A stretch of DNA of 64,000 nt. Origin: a virus. Its lineage: Duplodnaviria; Caudoviricetes. The stretch is from the IMG/VR virus record IMGVR_UViG_3300033075_001021; one strand, 5' to 3'. Shown here piece after piece: positions 25,896 to 64,000 of the stretch (positions are counted from its first letter, which is position 1; each line of letters begins with the position of its first letter). The position numbers were made by a program, and so were the translations under genes. Under the pieces are notes generated by a model. It ran no database searches and was not told where the DNA came from. It was given only the letters and a program-made list of their open reading frames with translations.

Positions 25896-25930
25896 AAAAA
25901 ACCCCAGTCAAATTATGAACTGGGGTTTTT
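25896..25930 (-). terminator. attenuator terminator of the KYTQPG tRNA operon
   Basis: CCCCAGT-loop-ACTGGGG followed by T6. Confidence 0.85.
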
Positions 25931-25948
25931 GCTTATTCCTGATTATCT

Positions 25949-26053
25949 TTACACCAAATCGATGTCTTTTACAGTATATAACATACCCAGTCCATTAAGA
26001 GGTGTGCCCCCTTGTGGTTTTTGTTTCGGTTGATATGTCGTATACTTTTTCAT
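25949..26053 (-). CDS. leader peptide MKKYTTYQPKQKPQGGTPLNGLGMLYTVKDIDLV
   Basis: Codons 2-18 are all K/Y/T/Q/P/G, matching the downstream tRNAs. Confidence 0.9.
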   Translation of the reverse strand: MKKYTTYQPKQKPQGGTPLNGLGMLYTVKDIDLV

Positions 26054-26076
26054 GACTTTATTTGTTATTGTTGTTT

Positions 26077-26118
26077 ATAAATATGTACAAAGATACAAAA
26101 GTTTTTTGAAATGTCAAA
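26077..26118 (-). promoter_or_regulatory. tandem TAnnTTTG promoter plus TATTTAT motif
   Basis: TTTGACA..GTATCTTTG then TATTTAT. Confidence 0.8.
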
Positions 26119-34453: not shown

Positions 34454-34483
34454 AAAAAACCCCTCGATTTGTGGTCGAGGGGC
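34454..34483 (-). terminator. attenuator terminator of the FEDA tRNA operon
   Basis: CCCCTCGA-loop-TCGAGGGG followed by T6. Confidence 0.85.
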
Positions 34484-34507
34484 TCAAATTATGTTTTAAG
34501 ATAAACG

Positions 34508-34594
34508 TTAATTTTGGGCAATACTCGACCTCTGTGACCAATCGGCCTCAGCTGCATCAAAGTTAAACTCAAATATGTTGTTAACGTTTCTCAT
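34508..34594 (-). CDS. leader peptide MRNVNNIFEFNFDAAEADWSQRSSIAQN
   Basis: Codons 8-18 FEFNFDAAEAD match the Phe/Glu/Asp/Ala tRNAs downstream. Confidence 0.85.
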   Translation of the reverse strand: MRNVNNIFEFNFDAAEADWSQRSSIAQN

Positions 34595-34627
34595 TGTTTT
34601 TATGTTTGTGGGTTTCCCCGTTAAGTA

Positions 34628-34669
34628 ATAAATATATGCAAATATACGAAAGATTTTCGAAAAAGCAAA
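34628..34669 (-). promoter_or_regulatory. tandem TAnnTTTG promoter plus TATTTAT motif
   Basis: Near-identical to 61528-61569 and 40144-40185. Confidence 0.8.
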
Positions 34670-36983: not shown

Positions 36984-37073
36984 GTGAGGATGGTCGGACT
37001 CGAACCGACACGCTACTATTATTTCGCCCCAGATTCTAAGTCTGGTGTGTGCTGCCAATTTCACCACATCCCC
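36984..37073 (-). tRNA. tRNA-Leu(TAG)
   Basis: Type II cloverleaf. Confidence 0.9.
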
Positions 37074-37076
37074 ATA

Positions 37077-37508
37077 TTATTTTTTACGCCTAAATGTTGG
37101 TGTTTGTGAATGACAATTCGGGCAAAGAACTCTAAGGTTTTCTAACCTATTATCATTATTATCACCATTAATATGGTCAATTTCTAATGTGATTGGTTTT
37201 CCATTCCAAATCCCATTATTTGAACATTCAGCGCATTCATTTTTTAAAACTCCATCATTAATAAGTCTTATTCTTAAGTAACTGCTATTAAACTTAACTT
37301 TATTATTAATAATATCATCTAGACTAACTTTTGGTTTTCTCAACCCTTTACCAGCCATATTCCCATCATACTCAATACCCATTAATTTTAAATAATTGTT
37401 AAGTGTATCTTGTTTACATTTAAGTTGTTTAATAATGTAAGCTTTAGATTGTTTTTCAACAATCCATTTTAGTATTTCTTCTTTTCTTTCTATTATATCT
37501 TTTCTCAT
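37077..37508 (-). CDS. HNH endonuclease (start MRKDI)
   Basis: LEIDHINGDNNDNRLENLRVLCPNCHSQT. Confidence 0.9.
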   Translation of the reverse strand: MRKDIIERKEEILKWIVEKQSKAYIIKQLKCKQDTLNNYLKLMGIEYDGNMAGKGLRKPKVSLDDIINNKVKFNSSYLRIRLINDGVLKNECAECSNNGIWNGKPITLEIDHINGDNNDNRLENLRVLCPNCHSQTPTFRRKK

Positions 37509-37563
37509 ACTTATAAATATAAGGTAGATACATAAAAAGTAAATAGACATGTATACCAATTTT

Positions 37564-37646
37564 GTGACCCTAGTAGGACTCGAACCTACACGCCTTACGG
37601 CAGCTGCTTCTTAGACAGCTCTGTCTACCAATTCCAGCATAGAGCC
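37564..37646 (-). tRNA. tRNA-Leu(AAG)
   Basis: Loop CTAAGAA. Confidence 0.85.
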
Positions 37647-37745
37647 ATTTGTTGTCTTTCCAACCGTCACGATTTTTTTGCGATTATTTGAGATATTGTT
37701 TATCCCATTATCATCTCTTTTCACACTCCATATCGCTTTGAGTTT

Positions 37746-37830
37746 GTGACCATGACAGGCTTCGAACCTGCACATCCTTAAGGACCTGCGGGTCTAAACC
37801 GCAGCTGTATTCCAGTTCCAGCACATGGCC
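37746..37830 (-). tRNA. tRNA-Leu(TAG)
   Basis: Loop TTTAGAC. Confidence 0.85.
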
Positions 37831-37874
37831 ATTACAAGATGATTTTGAAAGGTTTGAACTTTCTCGTTTCTATT

Positions 37875-38201
37875 TTAGGTAGATTCTTTATCCTGAAATT
37901 TGCTGAAATCATCTTTTGTGGCCGTAAAAGGACTCGAACCTTCACTCCTTTCGGAACCTGATTTTGAGTCAGGCGTGTCTACCAATTCCACCATACGGCC
38001 ATTTATTATTTCAAATATCTTTCGTGGACTAATTTGTATCGCTTTTTGTGATATTTCATCCACTCTTTTTTTTGGTATATCATAATGATTTTTATGAAAC
38101 CAACACTTTTTAATGTTAAGGTCTTTAGCCATCTGATGAAGGTTCTCTATTGAATAAGGAACGCACACCAAATGTCTCATATTATCATAATAATATACCA
38201 T
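37875..38201 (-). CDS. DUF4031-like protein reading into tRNA-Leu(CAA)
   Basis: HLVC..LHQMAKDLNIKKCWFH..HYDI. Confidence 0.55.
   Translation of the reverse strand: MVYYYDNMRHLVCVPYSIENLHQMAKDLNIKKCWFHKNHYDIPKKRVDEISQKAIQISPRKIFEIINGRMVELVDTPDSKSGSERSEGSSPFTATKDDFSKFQDKEST
37918..38000 (-). tRNA. tRNA-Leu(CAA)
   Basis: Cloverleaf. Confidence 0.9.
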
Positions 38202-38202
38202 T

Positions 38203-38286
38203 GTGACCTTGACAGGCTTCGAACCTGCATGTCCTACGGACCAGTGGGTTTAAGCCACCGCTGTATTCCAGTTCCAGCACAAGGCC
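38203..38286 (-). tRNA. tRNA-Leu(TAA)
   Basis: Cloverleaf. Confidence 0.85.
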
Positions 38287-38371
38287 ATTTGAGAGACCCA
38301 AAAACTACACCATCGAAACAGGGACCTGTACCCCATAACATTCTCATTCTTGGTTTTACCTCTCTAGGTTT

Positions 38372-38459
38372 TGTAGGGCGAGAGGGAGTCGAACCCTCAC
38401 GGTCCTTTCGGACCACAGGATTTTAAGTCCTGCGTGTCTACCAGTTCCACCACCGCCCC
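38372..38459 (-). tRNA. tRNA-Leu(TAA)
   Basis: Cloverleaf. Confidence 0.9.
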
Positions 38460-38463
38460 ATTT

Positions 38464-38551
38464 GTAGAGATGGAAGGATTTGCACCCTCACGCTTATTCC
38501 TAAGCACAAGGCTTCTCGGCCTTGCGTGTCTACTAATTTCACCACATCTCA
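38464..38551 (-). tRNA. tRNA-Leu(GAG), C33
   Basis: Loop CCGAGAA. Confidence 0.75.
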
Positions 38552-38553
38552 AC

Positions 38554-38775
38554 TTATTTCCACTTAGTTTTCCTATTATATTTCCAAGTTTGGTATTCTC
38601 TTGCTTTATAATATTGCAACTGTTTATTCGGATTTTTATATCCTCTTCTATATCGTGGATAGAAGCTGATTCCTTCGTCCCAATATATAGGATAAAGAAT
38701 GTTTATCCAAATAATGTGATATTCTATACCACTAGTTGCTTTGCTAAGCTTTGCTCTGTTTCTATTTTTTGACAT
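38554..38775 (-). CDS. small basic hypothetical protein
   Basis: ORF behind promoter near 38821. Confidence 0.6.
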   Translation of the reverse strand: MSKNRNRAKLSKATSGIEYHIIWINILYPIYWDEGISFYPRYRRGYKNPNKQLQYYKAREYQTWKYNRKTKWK

Positions 38776-38842
38776 ATTAGGTTATTTACCTAATACATGT
38801 CAAGTCTTTTTTTCATATTGCAAATATACAGAACTTTTTTTA

Positions 38843-39139
38843 TTAATCCAAATATTTTACAAATTCGCTTTCAATTCTTTCAACGCCACTGCTATCCAAG
38901 GCATCAATATAGCCCAGTGGTGACGTACCAGCAGCAAGCATACAGATATTTTTAAATCCGTTTTCTTTAGTTATCTGGCTATCAGCTTCTGTAATAACAT
39001 CATCCATTTTAGCATATACCGATTCTAATCTTTTGGTTGCTGGATTAACGTTTCCCCACGAAACATGCGGGTCTCCGATTTCTTCAACCATAAATTTTCT
39101 TCCACTTTTTAGGTGGACTGTGTAACGTCTGTTGCTCAT
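38843..39139 (-). CDS. hypothetical protein (start MSNRR)
   Basis: ORF between tRNAs. Confidence 0.65.
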   Translation of the reverse strand: MSNRRYTVHLKSGRKFMVEEIGDPHVSWGNVNPATKRLESVYAKMDDVITEADSQITKENGFKNICMLAAGTSPLGYIDALDSSGVERIESEFVKYLD

Positions 39140-39152
39140 AAAATATTTTTTA

Positions 39153-39225
39153 GTGGCCCCTAACAGAATTGAACTGTTGACCTCTCCCATGTCAAAGGAG
39201 CGCTATCCCACTTAGCTAAAGGGCC
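39153..39225 (-). tRNA. tRNA-Val(GAC)
   Basis: Cloverleaf. Confidence 0.85.
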
Positions 39226-39230
39226 AATTT

Positions 39231-39316
39231 GTGGGTCCACTCGGACTCGAACCGAGATTAACTGCTCGTCTCCACCTTGTAAGGATGGGATGTTTATCCT
39301 GTTACACCATGGACCC
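39231..39316 (-). tRNA. tRNA-Val(TAC) with long variable region
   Basis: Loop CTTACAA. Confidence 0.8.
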
Positions 39317-39320
39317 ATTT

Positions 39321-39396
39321 GTAGGAGTGGACGGAGTCGAACCGCCGACCCTCTGCTTGTAAGGCAGATGCTCTAAACCAGCTGAGCTACACTCCC
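39321..39396 (-). tRNA. tRNA-Val(TAC)
   Basis: Cloverleaf. Confidence 0.9.
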
Positions 39397-39400
39397 ATGT

Positions 39401-39473
39401 GAAGCGGTGACAAGATTCAAACTTGTGTTTCAGAGGTTGCAGCTCTGCGCCTAAATCACTCGGCCACACCGCC
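39401..39473 (-). tRNA. tRNA-Cys(GCA)
   Basis: Cloverleaf, U73. Confidence 0.9.
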
Positions 39474-39698
39474 TTATACTATCCAACGACTCAATATTTG
39501 TGCTGGCATCTTTGATAAGAAATCAGCTTCACCCATATCAGAAATTGGAACTTCAAAGAAGACACCCATTGTTTGACTAATTGGGTTCCCTTCGGTACTA
39601 ATTCTTGTATTATAATAAGCAACCCCTTTTCTAATATACAATAATTCCGCTTCTGGTTTTTGCTTATAAAGCAATTTTTTGATTTCGTTCTTTTCCAT
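39474..39698 (-). CDS. hypothetical protein
   Basis: ORF between tRNAs. Confidence 0.65.
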   Translation of the reverse strand: MEKNEIKKLLYKQKPEAELLYIRKGVAYYNTRISTEGNPISQTMGVFFEVPISDMGEADFLSKMPAQILSRWIV

Positions 39699-39893
39699 AA
39701 TCTTTTTTAATTAAAACCTTTGTTGGTCTCCAATCACCGATGTCAATTGTAACCTCAATAAAATCATCGTTTTCTATATTATTTACATTAACATCTTCAA
39801 TAGCATCATTTGATAGCATTGGTGATTTATTAACCCCTTTTCGATTAAATAAATTTTTAATGTTAAGTAACTTTTTCATAAAACATGTGTTTT

Positions 39894-39981
39894 GAACCCA
39901 TGACAGGATTTGAACCTGTGGTGAGGGATAACCCTTACAGTTTTGCAGACTGTCATCTTCGGCCACTCGAATCACATGGGC
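39894..39981 (-). tRNA. tRNA-Cys(GCA) with long variable arm
   Basis: Variable arm AGGG-TTAT-CCCT. Confidence 0.8.
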
Positions 39982-39985
39982 AAAT

Positions 39986-40017
39986 AAAAAACCCCAGCTA
40001 TACTCTAGACTGGGGCT
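39986..40017 (-). terminator. attenuator terminator of the LVC tRNA operon
   Basis: GCCCCAG-loop-CTGGGGT followed by T-tract. Confidence 0.85.
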
Positions 40018-40041
40018 TAATGTTATTATTAGATTTCAAAT

Positions 40042-40122
40042 TTATAACATAGGAATCCCAGTCGTGTTAGATAACACTAGCACACACAATACAAGGAGCA
40101 ATATGTTTGATAAATTTTTCAT
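40042..40122 (-). CDS. leader peptide MKNLSNILLLVLCVLVLSNTTGIPML
   Basis: Codons 8-17 are all L/V/C, matching the downstream tRNAs. Confidence 0.9.
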   Translation of the reverse strand: MKNLSNILLLVLCVLVLSNTTGIPML

Positions 40123-40143
40123 CTTAGTTTTTTGTTGTTGTTT

Positions 40144-40185
40144 ATAAATATATGCAAATATACGAAAGAATTTTTAAAAAGCAAA
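40144..40185 (-). promoter_or_regulatory. tandem TAnnTTTG promoter plus TATTTAT motif
   Basis: TTTGC..TTCGTATATTTGCATATATTTAT. Confidence 0.8.
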
Positions 40186-40203: not shown

Positions 40204-40701
40204 TTAAAGATTTTTTACGTACTCAACGGTGATATCATTTTTCTTAATAAATCCTCTTAATTGTTCAAATGCTAATAAACTTGGTGGTTCACTCATTTCA
40301 TCGTCATTTTGGGGTAGATTATGAGGTATTGATACTTCTATTTTAATCAAGGATTTACTGATATCGACACCCATTGGGTATTTGAGTAAACTTACCCTTT
40401 CTTCAGATTCGTCTTCTTTACCCCTACCATAACCAGCCCTAACATCAGCATATGATTGTAATCTATATCTATTTGATAATGAATTACCATCAATAGTAAT
40501 TCTAACCTGCATTGGTATAGAATAAGACTTAAACCATTTATTTCTAGTAAAAGAAACATATGGTTGAATACTAGATGTTAATTTAAAATCATTTGCTATT
40601 ATTCCCATTAAACCACGATAGTTTGTAAAGTGATATAAAGGGCCAATATTTTTACCCTCTAATAACCCCTCTCTCAATAATTGTTTAATTAAATCTTTCA
40701 T
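40204..40701 (-). CDS. hypothetical protein (possible ADP-ribosyltransferase-like fold)
   Basis: LYHFT, VSFTR, ESEER; N-terminal LREGLLE motif. Confidence 0.5.
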   Translation of the reverse strand: MKDLIKQLLREGLLEGKNIGPLYHFTNYRGLMGIIANDFKLTSSIQPYVSFTRNKWFKSYSIPMQVRITIDGNSLSNRYRLQSYADVRAGYGRGKEDESEERVSLLKYPMGVDISKSLIKIEVSIPHNLPQNDDEMSEPPSLLAFEQLRGFIKKNDITVEYVKNL

Positions 40702-48427: not shown

Positions 48428-49495
48428 TTATTTTAAACCAACTTCTTCATTTTGCTTTGCAAAGAAATATAGTCGGCATCTTTCAGAAACCTTTGAGTTA
48501 ATATCCTTTGGCTCCAACCCAGCTTCAGCAATGGTATCGCTTTCTTCCTTCATGATGTCTTGAACAACATTTCTGATAAAGTCACCCATCTTCTTGATGT
48601 CGATGCTACCACCGTTCATAAGGTCAAAGGTCTTGTCAAGCATTTGTTCCAAACGCCAGTCAGGTGTAACCTTATTAACCACATCGATAATCTTGTTTAG
48701 CTTAGCATCATCAACTGGCTTTAAGGTTGTTACCTTTGAAGCCTTGCTGTGCTTTTCACCCTTAGACTTGAAACGATAAACCTTACCTTCTGGAGTCATG
48801 TGTGAAAATACAACACCTTCACCAATACCCACGTGTCCGAAAGCCTTACCAACAGGACATTCTTCTTCAACCTCAAGAGTCATTTCAATTATCTTGTTTT
48901 GAGCCAATTGAGGCATATTGAAGTCGATTTCGACAGAATAGGTCTTGTAGTCTTCAATGTTGTAAATCCTAGCCTCTGGGCATCTTAAATCAGAAGAATC
49001 AACCCAATAAGCAACTGGCTTGTCATCTTCACTCTTTGGATGCGGAGTAATCTTCACACCAAAGATGAACATGGACTTATCAATGTTAGAGATTGCTACG
49101 CTCTTTTGAATACCCTTACCAGCCCACTCACCATAGATAGTGATAGTGTTTTCCTTCATGTCAAGATTATGCTTTAAGCTGATATGATAGAATAGGTTCT
49201 GGAACGCACCTCTGTTGGTTTCAACAAAGAACGCAGAGCCAGCATTATCCTTTTCAGGTGTAATGATGTTCTCTCTGGATTGAGCCCACATACCTTCCAA
49301 TTCGTTGTAGGACACACCGAAGTTGGTACCATGAAGCTTGATTGTACCCTTAAAAGTCAATACAGGCTTTGGTCTTGATGGGTCGTAAATGGCATCGCCA
49401 TTCTCGTCCAATCCAACGAAATTATAGCTCCTATTGATATCAGCAATCACGTTCTTGAATTGCTCGATGCTTGGAAATGATATATGCTTCTTCAT
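48428..49495 (-). CDS. Rnl2-family RNA ligase
   Basis: KLHGTN, YGEW, GEGVV, FKSK. Confidence 0.85.
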   Translation of the reverse strand: MKKHISFPSIEQFKNVIADINRSYNFVGLDENGDAIYDPSRPKPVLTFKGTIKLHGTNFGVSYNELEGMWAQSRENIITPEKDNAGSAFFVETNRGAFQNLFYHISLKHNLDMKENTITIYGEWAGKGIQKSVAISNIDKSMFIFGVKITPHPKSEDDKPVAYWVDSSDLRCPEARIYNIEDYKTYSVEIDFNMPQLAQNKIIEMTLEVEEECPVGKAFGHVGIGEGVVFSHMTPEGKVYRFKSKGEKHSKASKVTTLKPVDDAKLNKIIDVVNKVTPDWRLEQMLDKTFDLMNGGSIDIKKMGDFIRNVVQDIMKEESDTIAEAGLEPKDINSKVSERCRLYFFAKQNEEVGLK

Positions 49496-49533: not shown

Positions 49534-50913
49534 TTACTTCAAACCTTTCGCCATGGCTTCAATCTCTTTGATTGATTCCAATGTATCGCAGGTGTTTTTA
49601 TCATCCCTAAGTGTCTTAAACACTGGGTGTAAAAGGGCATAGTTACCCTCAGAATCATTGGATAAACCGCAACACTTAACTTCAAGGATGGTGCCCAAAA
49701 GCTTATCTTGGTTATCCGTAATATACTGCATCATTTCTTCATTGATGCCAGTTGGACGAGTGAATACCTTGCCATCGGCTGATTCAGCATTTACACTGGA
49801 GATAACATTTGCGTTCTTACCAGTACCGTAGTTAAAACCAACAATCTTCAGGTCCACATCCATCTCCAACTTCATCTTAACTTGCCAGTTGGGTTTGCCA
49901 TCTTTCCATGTTCCTTCATAAGCTTTAAGGATAGTTCCTTCTTGACCTTGATTTAACATATCTTGGAAATGGCCCATAGCCTCATCATATGAATCAACAG
50001 CTTTGGTTTCAACAAGGCTAATCATGCTTGGTTTACGTTCAAACAGCATATCTGATACACGATTCAACCTTAAGTAGTAAGGTGTATCTGACTTCTGCTC
50101 AAAGTATTCGTCAACATGAATGGTATCCCATACGGTAAACCTGATGGCATCCAAAGCATCTTGATAATTCATATGTTTTTCTTCAAACTTCTTGATTTCT
50201 TTGGTTACATCTTCACCATCCAATTTCTTCTTACCAATGCTTACCAGAGATGCTACGATACCGTTGCTTTCATAACGACTGATACCATCCATGGTAAGTT
50301 CACCATTCAAAACACAATCCTCAAAACCAGCAAGTTCATCCAAGAACTTAGCACCAGTAAGAATTGTTGGTTCACCTTGACGACTTTCCAATTCAACATC
50401 ACCAGAACGAATAATAGCGTTGCAATAACGGCCATCCATTTTGATTTGGCTGTAACCCTTACCACCTTTTTCAAAAATCTTTTTAGCCAGCTTTTCATCA
50501 TAGGATTTAGCACCCATGTAAGGTGTTTCTTCAATGAGCTTCGGGAAAACCTTATTGATAAGACTTGTACCTAGGTTCATCTTACAATCCTTTTCGATGA
50601 TACGCTCAATGATATAAGCATCGTCAGCATCACATAAAGATAAAATTGCTGATAAGTGTAAAAGAGCCGCCTTACCTGTAAGTGTTCTTTCACTCAATAA
50701 AGATAACGCATCTAATGCATCTGTTAAGTCATGTGATAAGATTGATTTATCATAAGATGGTACCTGTTTGATATAGAACTTTACACGCTTGCTGTTGGCA
50801 AGATATAACACCTGCTTTAACAGGTCGTTATCTTTGTATTTACTCAGGATTTCAACTTTCTTTTTGGTTGATGATTCGCCAGCGATTTCATCAAAGATTT
50901 GTTTGATTTTCAT
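49534..50913 (-). CDS. ATP-dependent DNA ligase
   Basis: KMDGRY, LNGEL, EGTILK, KMK, LLHPVF..RDDK. Confidence 0.9.
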   Translation of the reverse strand: MKIKQIFDEIAGESSTKKKVEILSKYKDNDLLKQVLYLANSKRVKFYIKQVPSYDKSILSHDLTDALDALSLLSERTLTGKAALLHLSAILSLCDADDAYIIERIIEKDCKMNLGTSLINKVFPKLIEETPYMGAKSYDEKLAKKIFEKGGKGYSQIKMDGRYCNAIIRSGDVELESRQGEPTILTGAKFLDELAGFEDCVLNGELTMDGISRYESNGIVASLVSIGKKKLDGEDVTKEIKKFEEKHMNYQDALDAIRFTVWDTIHVDEYFEQKSDTPYYLRLNRVSDMLFERKPSMISLVETKAVDSYDEAMGHFQDMLNQGQEGTILKAYEGTWKDGKPNWQVKMKLEMDVDLKIVGFNYGTGKNANVISSVNAESADGKVFTRPTGINEEMMQYITDNQDKLLGTILEVKCCGLSNDSEGNYALLHPVFKTLRDDKNTCDTLESIKEIEAMAKGLK

Positions 50914-51080: not shown

Positions 51081-52214
51081 TTACAACATTTTGTACAATT
51101 TTTTATCATCGTACTCCATCATGTATTCCTTTATGGTTCCAACCTTGCCTGTTTGAAGTGCGAAATACAAGCCTGTAAAGGAATCCAGACCCATTTTCTT
51201 TGTAACTTCGAATACCGCAGTAGCATACGCTTTCCTTTCGGCAGCTGTTATGTTCTTTGGCTTTCTTGGTTCCAATTCAACCCAAGCTTCGTTAAGCTTA
51301 GCTATCAACGCATCGTAGCTAGCCTTTAACCTGAAGATTTCTTCACGTCTTTCTGGGAAAGTCGCAGCAAATTCTTCGATTTCATTGGCTTTAACGACAG
51401 TCAATATGTTATGCTCAGCAGTTTTTGACTTTAAGTGGTGAACCGCAACATACGCTGGGTTCTTGATTTTAACACGATTGAAGTTACCGTCCACAACCAC
51501 ATAACCTTCTTCAGACCATGGCATACCTTCAAATGTTCTTATCAAAGCACCGAAGTCCTTTGCGTTCAAATCAAAAGCTTTAACCAACGGGATACCAGTC
51601 AACAAAGAAAAGTTTTTCAACACTTCATAGTTGTCCTCAACCAAAGTTTCTGCATTTCTTGCGGCCAATAATGTAATAGATGATTCACCGTGAGGCTTTA
51701 CTACTATATTATATGGTGTTGTTAATTCAAATACAAAGGTTGTTTTCTTGAAAGACTTGAACAATGATTTCTCAATATTATACTTTTCTTTCAATACCTT
51801 CCAGAATAACTCATTGAAAGTAGTTCCCATCTTGTTGTTTACTTCCCCTTCACCTTCAGCAGTACCAGTAGTTGCAGCAAACCATTCTTGCTTATGCCAA
51901 TCCCAATAAACTTGAATCATTGTACCATCGACTTTTTCAAGTACAACGGCAGAATTCCAGTCTATCTTAGCGGCTTGTGATTCACCGTGATTGAAGAACT
52001 TTCTGAATGACATAGACATAACCTTCCATGTATCCCTTTCAAGAATAAGACCACGACAGTCTTGTACCTCTGGGCATGACATATCAGATTCAATTTGGTC
52101 ATATTTCAAATGAATCTTTGAGGTATATGTACGACATTTTAATTTAAAATCTTGTATTGCCTTAGCTAACCCAAATTTTTTTATATACTTAACTACTGAT
52201 AACTCCTGTATCAT
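51081..52214 (-). CDS. Rnl1 (T4 RnlA-like) RNA ligase
   Basis: DCRGLI, KFFNHGE, EKVDGT, FEL, EGYVV, RVKIKN. Confidence 0.9.
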   Translation of the reverse strand: MIQELSVVKYIKKFGLAKAIQDFKLKCRTYTSKIHLKYDQIESDMSCPEVQDCRGLILERDTWKVMSMSFRKFFNHGESQAAKIDWNSAVVLEKVDGTMIQVYWDWHKQEWFAATTGTAEGEGEVNNKMGTTFNELFWKVLKEKYNIEKSLFKSFKKTTFVFELTTPYNIVVKPHGESSITLLAARNAETLVEDNYEVLKNFSLLTGIPLVKAFDLNAKDFGALIRTFEGMPWSEEGYVVVDGNFNRVKIKNPAYVAVHHLKSKTAEHNILTVVKANEIEEFAATFPERREEIFRLKASYDALIAKLNEAWVELEPRKPKNITAAERKAYATAVFEVTKKMGLDSFTGLYFALQTGKVGTIKEYMMEYDDKKLYKML

Positions 52215-52938
52215 TATTTCTTTTTTTATGTGACTCTGAAATTTTTCTTTTTGTTTCTTCACTCAAAACACGCCCACTTCTTTTTTTACTTTGTTCAATT
52301 TTTAATTGTATTGCCGCATCAACACCCATAATTTCTTCATACGTTTTACCTTTATTCGGATTTTTCCACCCTTTTCTAGCCTTAGATAAACTTTCTTTAT
52401 GTTTATCTGACATTGGTTTTTTCTTTCCTTTATTAGATTCTGAAATTTTTCTTTTTGTTTCCTCACTTAAAGGACGAAATTTTTTCTTTTTACCTTTTAA
52501 TAATTCCGACATTTTTTTTGCTGTTTCTGATGCCCACGGTTTTTGTTTTCCTTTATGTGCATCACTTATTTTTTTCTTATGTTCATCAGTTAATTTTTTA
52601 CCTTTATGAAATTTTGAAACATTAGCTCGAAGAACTTCTTTTTTAGGGTTATTTGAAAATGTATCACCCCCAGTGCCCCCCTCTGCAATATTATAACCAC
52701 CAATATTTTTACTAATAAACTCTTTTTCTTTTTCGTTTAAAGTATCGATATTGTCACATTCAAATATTATTTCCCATTTAAAATTATGAAAACCATATTT
52801 TTTAATCGCATTATAAAATAACCATTTCTTTTTATTAAAGGCTAATTTATGTGATTGTATTCTTTTTTCTAATGTCCCCTTTGTTTTACCAATATAAAAT
52901 TTACCATTTATTGTGTTGGTTGCTTTGTAAATTATCAT
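52189..52938 (-). CDS. GIY-YIG homing endonuclease with NUMOD3 repeats
   Basis: IYKATNTINGKFYIGKT, GYNIAEGG, SEETKRKISES repeats. Confidence 0.9.
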   Translation of the reverse strand: MIIYKATNTINGKFYIGKTKGTLEKRIQSHKLAFNKKKWLFYNAIKKYGFHNFKWEIIFECDNIDTLNEKEKEFISKNIGGYNIAEGGTGGDTFSNNPKKEVLRANVSKFHKGKKLTDEHKKKISDAHKGKQKPWASETAKKMSELLKGKKKKFRPLSEETKRKISESNKGKKKPMSDKHKESLSKARKGWKNPNKGKTYEEIMGVDAAIQLKIEQSKKRSGRVLSEETKRKISESHKKRNNDTGVISS

Positions 52939-61334: not shown

Positions 61335-61367
61335 AAAAAAGCCTCTGGATTTTAGGTCAGAGGCTTT
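61335..61367 (-). terminator. attenuator terminator of the RINHMSW tRNA operon
   Basis: AAGCCTCTG-loop-CAGAGGCTT followed by T-tract. Confidence 0.85.
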
Positions 61368-61395
61368 ATATTGTGAATCGTGATTTGCTGAGTTT

Positions 61396-61494
61396 TTATC
61401 CCCAAGTATCGTCACTATTAAGCATGACCTGTCCGTTTGAATTACTACGTATAATCCAATTAATCGAATTCATATGTCTGTTAATAGTTCTCAT
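61396..61494 (-). CDS. leader peptide MRTINRHMNSINWIIRSNSNGQVMLNSDDTWG
   Basis: 19 of the first 20 codons are R/I/N/H/M/S/W, matching the downstream tRNAs. Confidence 0.9.
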   Translation of the reverse strand: MRTINRHMNSINWIIRSNSNGQVMLNSDDTWG

Positions 61495-61527
61495 TGTTTT
61501 TATGTTTGTGGGTTTTCCCGTTAAGTA

Positions 61528-61569
61528 ATAAATATATGCAAATATACGAAAGATTTTTTAAAAAGCAAA
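61528..61569 (-). promoter_or_regulatory. tandem TAnnTTTG promoter plus TATTTAT motif
   Basis: Part of a ~70-bp near-identical repeat (61489-61558 vs 34589-34658). Confidence 0.8.
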
Positions 61570-62783: not shown

Positions 62784-63941
62784 TTACAACAATTTTTGAA
62801 AATTATTATATTCAGCCCTAGCGATTGCGTCTCCAAGCTCTTTACCCTGCTTTAAACCATGTGTTTTCATTAGTTCTTCACCAGAAACTGTCAATTTGAA
62901 TACTATAAAAGCTTTAAGTAGCTTAGAATCAATATTTTCATGACCGCCAAATTTACTAATCTGACCATCTGTTACACCTGAAACTTTTTGCATTCTTTTA
63001 AGCTGAACAGCTGTTTCAGGTGTAAGATTTAACAAATTAAGTAAAAATGTAATACCTCTAATTTCGTCAACGGTATATTTCAAGTTGTTTAGTTGTTTAG
63101 AAACAACGCTTGGATTATTCCCAACCAAAAGAGTGCTGATAACCAGAATAGGGTCTCTTTCTTCAAGAAAATCGTTGTTTACTCTCAATCCTTTGAATAT
63201 CCAATCAAACAGACCATATTTGTCAATAAGGCTCAAAAAGTGTTTAACAGACTTAGCTGATTGGATACCTTTGATAAACTCATCGCGAATCCTTTCACCT
63301 GAAATACCATCAAGACTAGCATCGTTTCTTAATGCAGAGTCAACCTGAGGGTCCAAACCTGACCCAAACCTACCAGCAAATCTTATAGCTCTAAGAATTC
63401 TAAGTCTATCTTCGTTAAACCTTTCTTCAGGGGTACCCACGGTTCTTACTACACCGTTTTTAAGGTCTTCTATGCCACCCACAAGGTCAACAACCTCATG
63501 GGTATCTATGTCATAAAAAAGGGCGTTAATAGTCAAATCTCGACGTTTAACATCATTCTCTATGTTGGTGAACTTTACGGAATCTGGTCTTCGAGAATCA
63601 GAAGACCCAATATCTTCACGAAAAGTAGCGATTTCGTATTCCCCTTGGTTGGTAAAAACATTGATTACACCAAACGCTTTACCTGTTGGGAGTGTCCTGA
63701 ACCCAGCTTGGGCCATGATTTGTTCAACCCTATCTGGAAGGGCGTCAGTGGCCAAATCAAAGTCTTTTGGCTGTTTACCCAACAAAGCATCACGCACAGC
63801 ACCACCAACAACATAAAGCTTATGGCCGTTATTTTTAAAAACGTCCTTTATAGCCAATATATCGCTAGGTATGTTGATATCGTATTTAACCCTATTTTCC
63901 ATTAGTTTGAAACGCAATGATTCGCGTATAAAATTTTTCAT
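62784..63941 (-). CDS. cca: CCA-adding tRNA nucleotidyltransferase (class II)
   Basis: VGGAVRD..KDFDLAT, EIATFR, RRDLTINA, EDRLRILRAIRF, SGERIRDE. Confidence 0.9.
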   Translation of the reverse strand: MKNFIRESLRFKLMENRVKYDINIPSDILAIKDVFKNNGHKLYVVGGAVRDALLGKQPKDFDLATDALPDRVEQIMAQAGFRTLPTGKAFGVINVFTNQGEYEIATFREDIGSSDSRRPDSVKFTNIENDVKRRDLTINALFYDIDTHEVVDLVGGIEDLKNGVVRTVGTPEERFNEDRLRILRAIRFAGRFGSGLDPQVDSALRNDASLDGISGERIRDEFIKGIQSAKSVKHFLSLIDKYGLFDWIFKGLRVNNDFLEERDPILVISTLLVGNNPSVVSKQLNNLKYTVDEIRGITFLLNLLNLTPETAVQLKRMQKVSGVTDGQISKFGGHENIDSKLLKAFIVFKLTVSGEELMKTHGLKQGKELGDAIARAEYNNFQKLL

Positions 63942-64000
63942 TCTATACAAAGATACACCATTTTTATCAGACGACAAAATCTTTTTAGGCATATTTTCGT

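Follow-up and report, generated by a model that had tools for sequence, protein, structure and literature searches.

The window, by which we mean the whole 64,000-nucleotide stretch of viral DNA analysed here (Duplodnaviria; Caudoviricetes; IMG/VR virus record IMGVR_UViG_3300033075_001021), is AT-rich and phage-like (31-42% GC). Its 56 tRNA genes share the minus strand, and scattered among them are small open reading frames (ORFs) and homing-endonuclease genes. At 40185-39986, read along the minus strand, a promoter, a 26-codon ORF and an intrinsic terminator are followed by a tRNA-Cys gene, and the upstream neighbour is an ORF of 165 residues whose stop lies at 40204. We call this arrangement the LVC unit, and its parts are as follows.

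40155-40185, minus strand: LVC promoter, with -33 TTTG and -7 TAnnTTTG boxes, a motif of the Bacteroidota sigma-A type
40123-40154, minus strand: 5' untranslated region, A-rich and devoid of a Shine-Dalgarno sequence; the positions -3 and -6 relative to the ATG are A
40042-40122, minus strand: LVC leader ORF, 26 codons and a stop
40072-40101, minus strand: regulatory run (codons 8-17), made up of ten Leu/Val/Cys codons in succession
40057-40063, minus strand: putative antiterminator strand, GACTGGG (codons 20-22), a complement to part of the terminator's 5' arm
39986-40018, minus strand: intrinsic terminator, a hairpin (40018-39989) and a T run (39991-39986), about -16 kcal/mol

Codons 8-17 of the leader read TTG CTC CTT GTA TTG TGT GTG CTA GTG TTA, that is, five different Leu codons together with Val and Cys, exactly as the first-pass annotation of this DNA had reported for an ORF at these coordinates. 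The leader ORF and the terminator hairpin are separated by a 23-nt spacer, and the hairpin consists of a 5' arm (40018-40006), a loop (40005-40001) and a 3' arm that begins at 40000. The complementarity between GACTGGG and CCCAGTC that had been noticed on first reading is likewise exact, the former spanning 40063-40057 and the latter 40014-40008 within the 5' arm. The tRNA-Cys gene starts at 39981, only 5 nt past the T run, which leaves a space too small for any further promoter, so that tRNA-Cys can be transcribed only through the terminator. A promoter followed by a strong terminator within about 170 nt is, moreover, sensible only if termination is conditional.

The promoter motif (-33 TTTG / -7 TAnnTTTG) is the one defined for Bacteroidota (PMC6847099; PMC9723704), and the A-rich start region lacking a Shine-Dalgarno sequence follows the translation-initiation rule of that phylum (PMC6847099). 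From the promoter type and the absence of Shine-Dalgarno sequences we infer a Bacteroidota host (PMC6847099). A scan with sigma-70-type promoter and terminator models, the wrong promoter model for this DNA, gave promoter-like sites at chance level and missed the minus-strand terminator.

The run of Leu, Val and Cys codons is not a product of chance. Against the window's own amino-acid usage, ten L/V/C codons out of ten have a binomial probability of 5e-9, and of the 27,044 ten-residue segments that the six-frame ORFs of 20 residues or more contain, a single one is composed of Leu, Val and Cys only, the one in the LVC leader itself. When the minus strand was searched for strong hairpins with a T run behind them, three more terminators came to light directly before tRNA blocks, each belonging to a unit with the same promoter, whose 25-nt core is identical in three of the four units (none expected), and with a leader ORF of 28-34 codons.

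61335-61569, minus strand: WSHIMNR sister unit (promoter, leader and terminator), ORF 61494-61396, 18 of 19 early residues being W/S/H/I/M/N/R; the block downstream holds Trp, Ser, His, Ile, Met, Asn and Arg tRNAs
34454-34669, minus strand: DFEA(N) sister unit (promoter, leader and terminator), ORF 34594-34508, codons 8-18 being D/F/E/A/N in 11 of 11; the block downstream holds Asp, Phe, Glu and Ala, and later Asn, tRNAs
25896-26118, minus strand: PQYTKG sister unit (promoter, leader and terminator), ORF 26053-25949, codons 2-18 being P/Q/Y/T/K/G in 17 of 17; the block downstream holds Pro, Gln, Tyr, Thr, Lys and Gly tRNAs

For the four units the binomial probability of the match between a leader and its own tRNA block ranges from 1e-6 to 5e-9, and the four leader sets (WSHIMNR, CVL, DFEA(N) and PQYTKG) together make up all 20 amino acids. 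Their terminators are as strong as those at gene ends in the window (-14 to -18 kcal/mol), and in three units the terminator stands 5-7 nt before the first tRNA. Codons 2-7 of the LVC leader are not Leu, Val or Cys, which counts against the attenuator reading set out below. An ORF that ends just before the promoter of the WSHIMNR unit (61700-61600, minus strand) has a C-terminus of alternating His and Gly followed by a run of Asp, resembling a metal-binding tail.

Relatives were sought by exact-pattern scans of IMG/VR and metagenome contigs, in which the LVC core and the promoter 24-mer, the latter also in degenerate form, served as queries; many loci were found, in wastewater, freshwater and peat-type samples. 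Two runs labelled RNA-Seq contain small portions of the locus, as contigs that look like DNA and show no transcript ends. The class of the leader agrees with the set of tRNAs found downstream by ARAGORN in all of these loci. In 24 units on IMG/VR contigs, the mean fraction of leader residues 2-20 that match the unit's own downstream tRNA set is 0.65, a value held down by truncated loci, as against 0.08 for the tRNA sets of the other classes. The order of residues in WSHIMNR and PQYTKG leaders differs between phages while the set of amino acids is kept. A complete and much diverged phage of 362 kb (CheckV 100%) has all four tRNA blocks, every one of them preceded by a terminator and a leader of the matching class, and another contig has a single mixed leader before a mixed array of 18 tRNAs, with Lys and Phe absent from both. 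One lineage (the related contigs L014, L015 and L055, one of them of 343 kb) counts against the attenuator reading: its LVC leader has four Val codons ahead of a block of Cys and Leu tRNAs only, and a search for tRNA-Val gave no match in the 5.7 kb downstream or on the rest of a 60-kb fragment. Two further IMG/VR loci (L013 and L016) have, about 1.5 kb upstream of the WSHIMNR leader, the promoter 24-mer some 185 nt before a tRNA-Met(CAT) gene and no leader ORF between the two; this tRNA is a candidate initiator tRNA, a species that an elongating ribosome could not sense.

When the 3 kb around the LVC unit were compared by blastn with 50,697 phage records, tRNA genes were the only matches, and a tblastn search of known phages with the neighbouring 639-residue protein gave none; these negatives indicate that there is no cultured relative. 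In bacterial and archaeal genomes the promoter 24-mer matched once, on a 170-kb contig (L062, PLXT01000115.1) in a metagenome-assembled genome labelled Methanobacterium sp. This contig is AT-rich and has a DFEA-type leader, a terminator and Asp, Phe and Glu tRNAs; it is probably a phage contig mis-binned into an archaeal genome, and as such no clue to the host.

Nine distinct copies of the LVC leader from close relatives allow a finer view. The ORF has exactly 26 codons in all of them, and codons 8-17 differ only by synonymous changes or by interchange among Leu, Val and Cys, with one exception (a Ser); one swap of Val for Cys takes three base changes. Codons 2-6 and 18-25 vary freely, save for an invariant CTGGG. 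These patterns bear on the reading of the ORF as a small hydrophobic signal-like or membrane peptide with its own promoter and terminator, the tRNAs then arising from constitutive leakage. Residues 7-17 do make up a hydrophobic stretch of 11 residues, preceded by an N-terminus that contains Lys, on its face like a signal peptide, and the peptide is conserved in relatives. Yet with 26 residues in all, only nine follow the hydrophobic stretch and no mature part is left, while 11 residues are too few to span a membrane, for which roughly 18 or more are required. The three sister leaders, of the same architecture, are polar; no Ile, Phe, Met or Ala occurs at any of the ten run codons in the nine copies, so that it is the L/V/C set that is kept and not hydrophobicity; and what is conserved in the nucleotide sequence (CTGGG) follows the terminator arm. 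We thus consider a membrane or secreted peptide very improbable, in line with the first-pass annotation, which had warned that the leader might be mistaken for one.

A reading as a translated leader of an attenuator calls for an alternative to the terminator hairpin. In nearly every unit a stretch of 6-10 nt at about nt 56-70 of the leader (codons 20-23) is complementary to the 5' arm of the unit's own terminator, the exception being one DFEA unit of the 362-kb phage, where pairing falls at nt 75-89. The predicted LVC antiterminator duplex has -14.8 kcal/mol, matched or bettered by 5 of 300 shuffled sequences, and the shuffle z-scores across units range from -0.8 to -3.8, being strongest for LVC and PQYTKG and weakest for WSHIMNR (-0.8 to -1.5). 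Shuffle support is thus moderate for LVC and weak for WSHIMNR, and matrices of cross-pairing between leaders and terminators do not have a clean diagonal; both points count against the attenuator reading. More telling is that in diverged relatives the pairing stretch changes together with the terminator, as can be seen from the following pairs (leader segment, then terminator 5' arm).

LVC, this window: GACTGGG with CCCAGTC
LVC, two relatives: GGCTGGG with CCCAGCC
LVC, 362-kb phage: TGGGCTT with AAGCCCA
DFEA, this window: GGTCGAG with CTCGACC
DFEA, 362-kb phage: CTGTCA with TGACAG
DFEA, 170-kb contig L062: AGGCTGA with TCAGCCT
WSHIMNR, this window: AGGTCA with TGACCT
WSHIMNR, relative L009: GAGTTA with TGACTC
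WSHIMNR, 362-kb phage: TCGGGT with ACCCGA

The DFEA and WSHIMNR units thus have wholly different terminators, with a matching leader segment for each. Co-variation was read from anchored listings of these pairs, the window's row in the MAFFT alignment being shifted by one base in the 5' arm. A change of Thr to Ala in the peptide accompanies the co-variation in the LVC leader, which places the constraint on the RNA. RNAalifold, applied to the nine LVC copies, predicts in addition an upstream helix (AACATA/TATGTT and CCT/GGG), whose columns are invariant and so neither support nor contradict it; such a helix would keep the pairing strand engaged until opened by a ribosome.

The effect of a ribosome on these pairings was modelled with folds of the RNA emerged before the 3' arm is made, in which the sequence up to 12 nt past the A-site codon was masked. 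The 5' arm of the LVC terminator is predicted to be sequestered with the A site at codons 2-16, partly so at codons 17-18, and free from codon 19 on, and in all four units, as in relatives, the predicted boundary likewise falls where the codon run ends. With no ribosome on the leader the antiterminator is predicted to form, so that the default would be read-through and termination would require translation of the leader. This predicted dependence of termination on translation is the one on which the first-pass annotation had made its attenuator stand or fall. The same predicted default means that termination would need tight coupling of transcription and translation, a demand that counts against the model.

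Read-through as the predicted ribosome-free state also lends something to a different reading, in which the leaders act as a general sensor of translation capacity or timing, or in which the response has the opposite sign and stalling lowers tRNA output, e.g., by transcript cleavage or Rho: lost coupling would open all four units together, leaders with codons for many amino acids report many tRNAs at once, and the data are compatible with either sign of the response. A general sensor, on the other hand, needs no four leaders that partition the 20 amino acids by tRNA block, with the match kept in diverged phages, and a pairing strand placed just beyond a ribosome stalled in the run is the classical layout in which stalling opens the downstream genes. 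We regard these variants as unlikely.

A third reading is that of a T-box-like riboswitch that senses tRNA, or of a small regulatory RNA with an incidental ORF. It is well established that T-box leaders likewise put a terminator/antiterminator switch before translation-related genes. At gathering score, the Rfam search of the window returned tRNA models only and no T-box, leader or small RNA family, and a permissive scan of the LVC unit gave nothing above 22 bits with an E-value below 0.1. The amino-acid match, moreover, is present only in the reading frame, and sets of three to seven amino acids are more than one specifier codon could explain, all of which makes an RNA of this kind extremely improbable.

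The LVC unit is thus most likely a translation-dependent transcription attenuator of the leader-peptide (trp/ilv) type that gates the Cys/Val/Leu tRNA block, as judged from sequence and modelled folds. The attenuator proposed in the first-pass annotation is in this way upheld in silico by the sister units, conservation, substitutions that stay within the set, a terminator that abuts the tRNA gene, co-variation and the predicted switch point. In the mechanism we envisage, a ribosome would be slowed on the ten Leu, Val and Cys codons when the matching charged tRNAs are scarce; the stretch at codons 20-22 would then be free to pair with the 5' arm of the terminator, and polymerase would read on into the tRNA genes. 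A fast ribosome that has reached at least codon 19 on its way to the stop would cover or unwind that stretch, the terminator would form, and transcription would end at 39991-39986. The three sister units would exert the same control for the other 17 amino acids.

The genes that would be regulated in this way, and an internal candidate promoter among them, are located as follows.

36984-39981, minus strand: regulated block, with two tRNA-Cys, three tRNA-Val, six tRNA-Leu and a Leu(GAG)-like tRNA of atypical form; an HNH endonuclease gene and small ORFs lie between the tRNA genes
38821-38852, minus strand: internal match to the promoter motif, ahead of a 73-residue ORF and Leu tRNAs

The six regular Leu tRNAs have the anticodons TAA (two), CAA, TAG (two) and AAG. 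The Leu-like tRNA at 38551-38464 (minus strand) has an 8-nt anticodon loop, CCGAGAAG, that contains GAG, and is left unassigned by ARAGORN; its homologue in the relative L012 is a regular tRNA-Leu(GAG), compared with which it has one extra base. The block had been described on first reading as two Cys, three Val and seven Leu tRNAs, GAG included, a count that holds for Cys, for Val and for six of the Leu tRNAs, the seventh being this atypical gene.

The variety of Leu codons in the leader had also suggested sensing at the level of isoacceptors, which is possible from the sequence. Each codon of the run can be read by some tRNA of the block, and none of the nine close copies has lost CTT, CTA or TTA/TTG. 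The codon CTC is in the leader where tRNA-Leu(GAG) or its odd homologue is present (the window and L012) and absent where that tRNA is (L002, L004 and L008), a co-occurrence that amounts to one evolutionary event. Five distinct Leu codons in six have a probability of 0.04, whereas all four leaders together use 33 distinct codons, an unremarkable number when 30.3 +/- 2.2 are expected (P = 0.16), and in one relative tRNA-Leu(CAG) is present while the codon CTG is missing from the leader, which counts against the idea, and against the attenuator itself. Codon diversity for Leu and the link between CTC and GAG in a single lineage thus speak weakly for the suggestion, and the diversity across the four leaders does not.

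The internal promoter that had been suspected near 38821 is a true match (38852-38821) to the motif used throughout the window: TTTG-N17-22-TAnnTTTG occurs 26 times as against 5.4 expected, a five-fold excess, with 20 of the matches on the coding strand. By this candidate promoter the Leu tRNAs may have a second, unattenuated input, a point that counts against the attenuator reading.

Several other features of the tRNA complement of the window deserve mention. Nine tRNAs with class-I anticodons (His, Ile, Asn, Cys, Val, Asp, Glu, Thr and Lys) are 84-91 nt in length and have a long variable arm (60132-60042, 59889-59806, 59245-59158, 39981-39894, 39316-39231, 34448-34361, 33473-33386, 24699-24616 and 23495-23409, all minus strand), and each has a normal-sized sibling nearby. 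A long variable arm is expected only in Leu, Ser and Tyr tRNAs. Just upstream of the DFEA promoter (34765-34693, minus strand) ARAGORN predicts a tRNA-Gln(TTG) with G for U before the anticodon, which scores below the Rfam tRNA threshold and may be decayed or unusual. GC-rich and apparently structured stretches adjoin tRNA genes at 53550-53445, 22930-22780 and 22310-22170 (minus strand), none with an Rfam match and the first directly upstream of a lone tRNA-Arg(TCT) (53443-53371). Endonuclease ORFs of HNH type and GIY-YIG-like kind, at 37559-37077 and 43857-43141 (minus strand), are inside or beside tRNA blocks. Genes for tRNA repair and maturation are also found among the blocks (51081-52262, 48428-49495, 49534-50913 and 62784-63992, minus strand), namely genes for two RNA ligases, one of them of the T4 Rnl1 type, for an ATP-dependent DNA ligase and for a CCA-adding enzyme from the poly(A) polymerase family; their presence fits a phage that defends its decoding capacity.

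The closest known parallels are the leaders of enterobacterial ilv operons, with codons for Ile, Val and Leu in ilvGMEDA and for Val and Leu in ilvBN. Like the LVC unit, they combine a run of codons for several amino acids in a short translated leader with a terminator and an antiterminator freed by stalling; unlike it, they control biosynthetic enzymes and respond to amino-acid supply, whereas the targets of the LVC unit are the tRNAs that read its leader. The LVC unit differs further in its Leu/Val/Cys set, its phage carrier, its Bacteroidota-type promoter and its lack of a Shine-Dalgarno sequence, and the two have no sequence or Rfam family in common. The trp, his and leu leaders (Trp_leader RF00513, His_leader RF00514 and Leu_leader RF00512) share its logic and list of parts, and the possible upstream helix (AACATA/TATGTT, CCT/GGG) resembles the 1:2 pairing of trp; but they sense one amino acid each, as against three, and the untranslated state, which leads to super-attenuation in trp, is read-through in the LVC folds. 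None of the Rfam leader families (Leu_leader, Trp_leader, His_leader and Thr_leader), nor T-box, reaches its gathering threshold in the LVC unit, where the sole leader-family match listed was Trp_leader with 12 bits against a cut-off of 41.

The pheST leader of E. coli is, as is well established, an attenuator for a component of the translation apparatus and not for biosynthesis, and is alike in this respect; its target is a synthetase protein and it concerns one amino acid, whereas the phage units precede tRNA genes and the four cover all 20. T-box riboswitches also match the expression of decoding genes to the state of tRNA by choosing between terminator and antiterminator, but they bind uncharged tRNA directly and with no ribosome involved, and the LVC unit has neither T-box features nor an Rfam match to them. 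In Flavobacterium psychrophilum, candidates for leader-peptide attenuation have been described upstream of amino-acid biosynthesis operons (PMC9723704); they come from the likely host phylum and have the same promoter type and kind of control, their targets not being tRNA genes (PMC9723704). The phylum thus appears to employ such control for amino-acid operons, which speaks for its plausibility in the host. In mechanism the LVC unit is the classical attenuator, and it differs in its tRNA targets, whose product would feed back on the signal, in the three to seven amino acids per leader (all 20 over the four units), in the phage carrier and in the lack of an Rfam family.

To our knowledge, the regulation of large phage tRNA sets is largely unknown, and tRNA genes are as a rule regarded as constitutive or just assigned to a time class. 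A full-text literature search found no description of leader-peptide or attenuator control of tRNA genes. An attenuator before tRNA genes would bring a new kind of target under the mechanism familiar from trp, his and ilv and, if true, would be the first attenuation system in which tRNAs are the regulated genes. Gene callers will label such leaders as hypothetical small or membrane proteins. As tRNA output would relieve the slow decoding that signals for it, the circuit would be a closed loop, and on balance we lean towards viewing the four attenuators as a tRNA homeostat of large Bacteroidota-type phages, one that would span all 20 amino acids and sense tRNA supply rather than amino-acid supply. 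With a product that removes its own inducing signal, it would be a self-correcting sensor of decoding capacity, and it would explain why tRNA genes are grouped by amino acid in these phages. The proposal bears on phage counter-measures against host defences that cleave tRNAs: if it is true, such a phage could, together with its neighbouring RNA ligase and CCA-adding genes, replace the tRNAs removed by host defences or shut-off.
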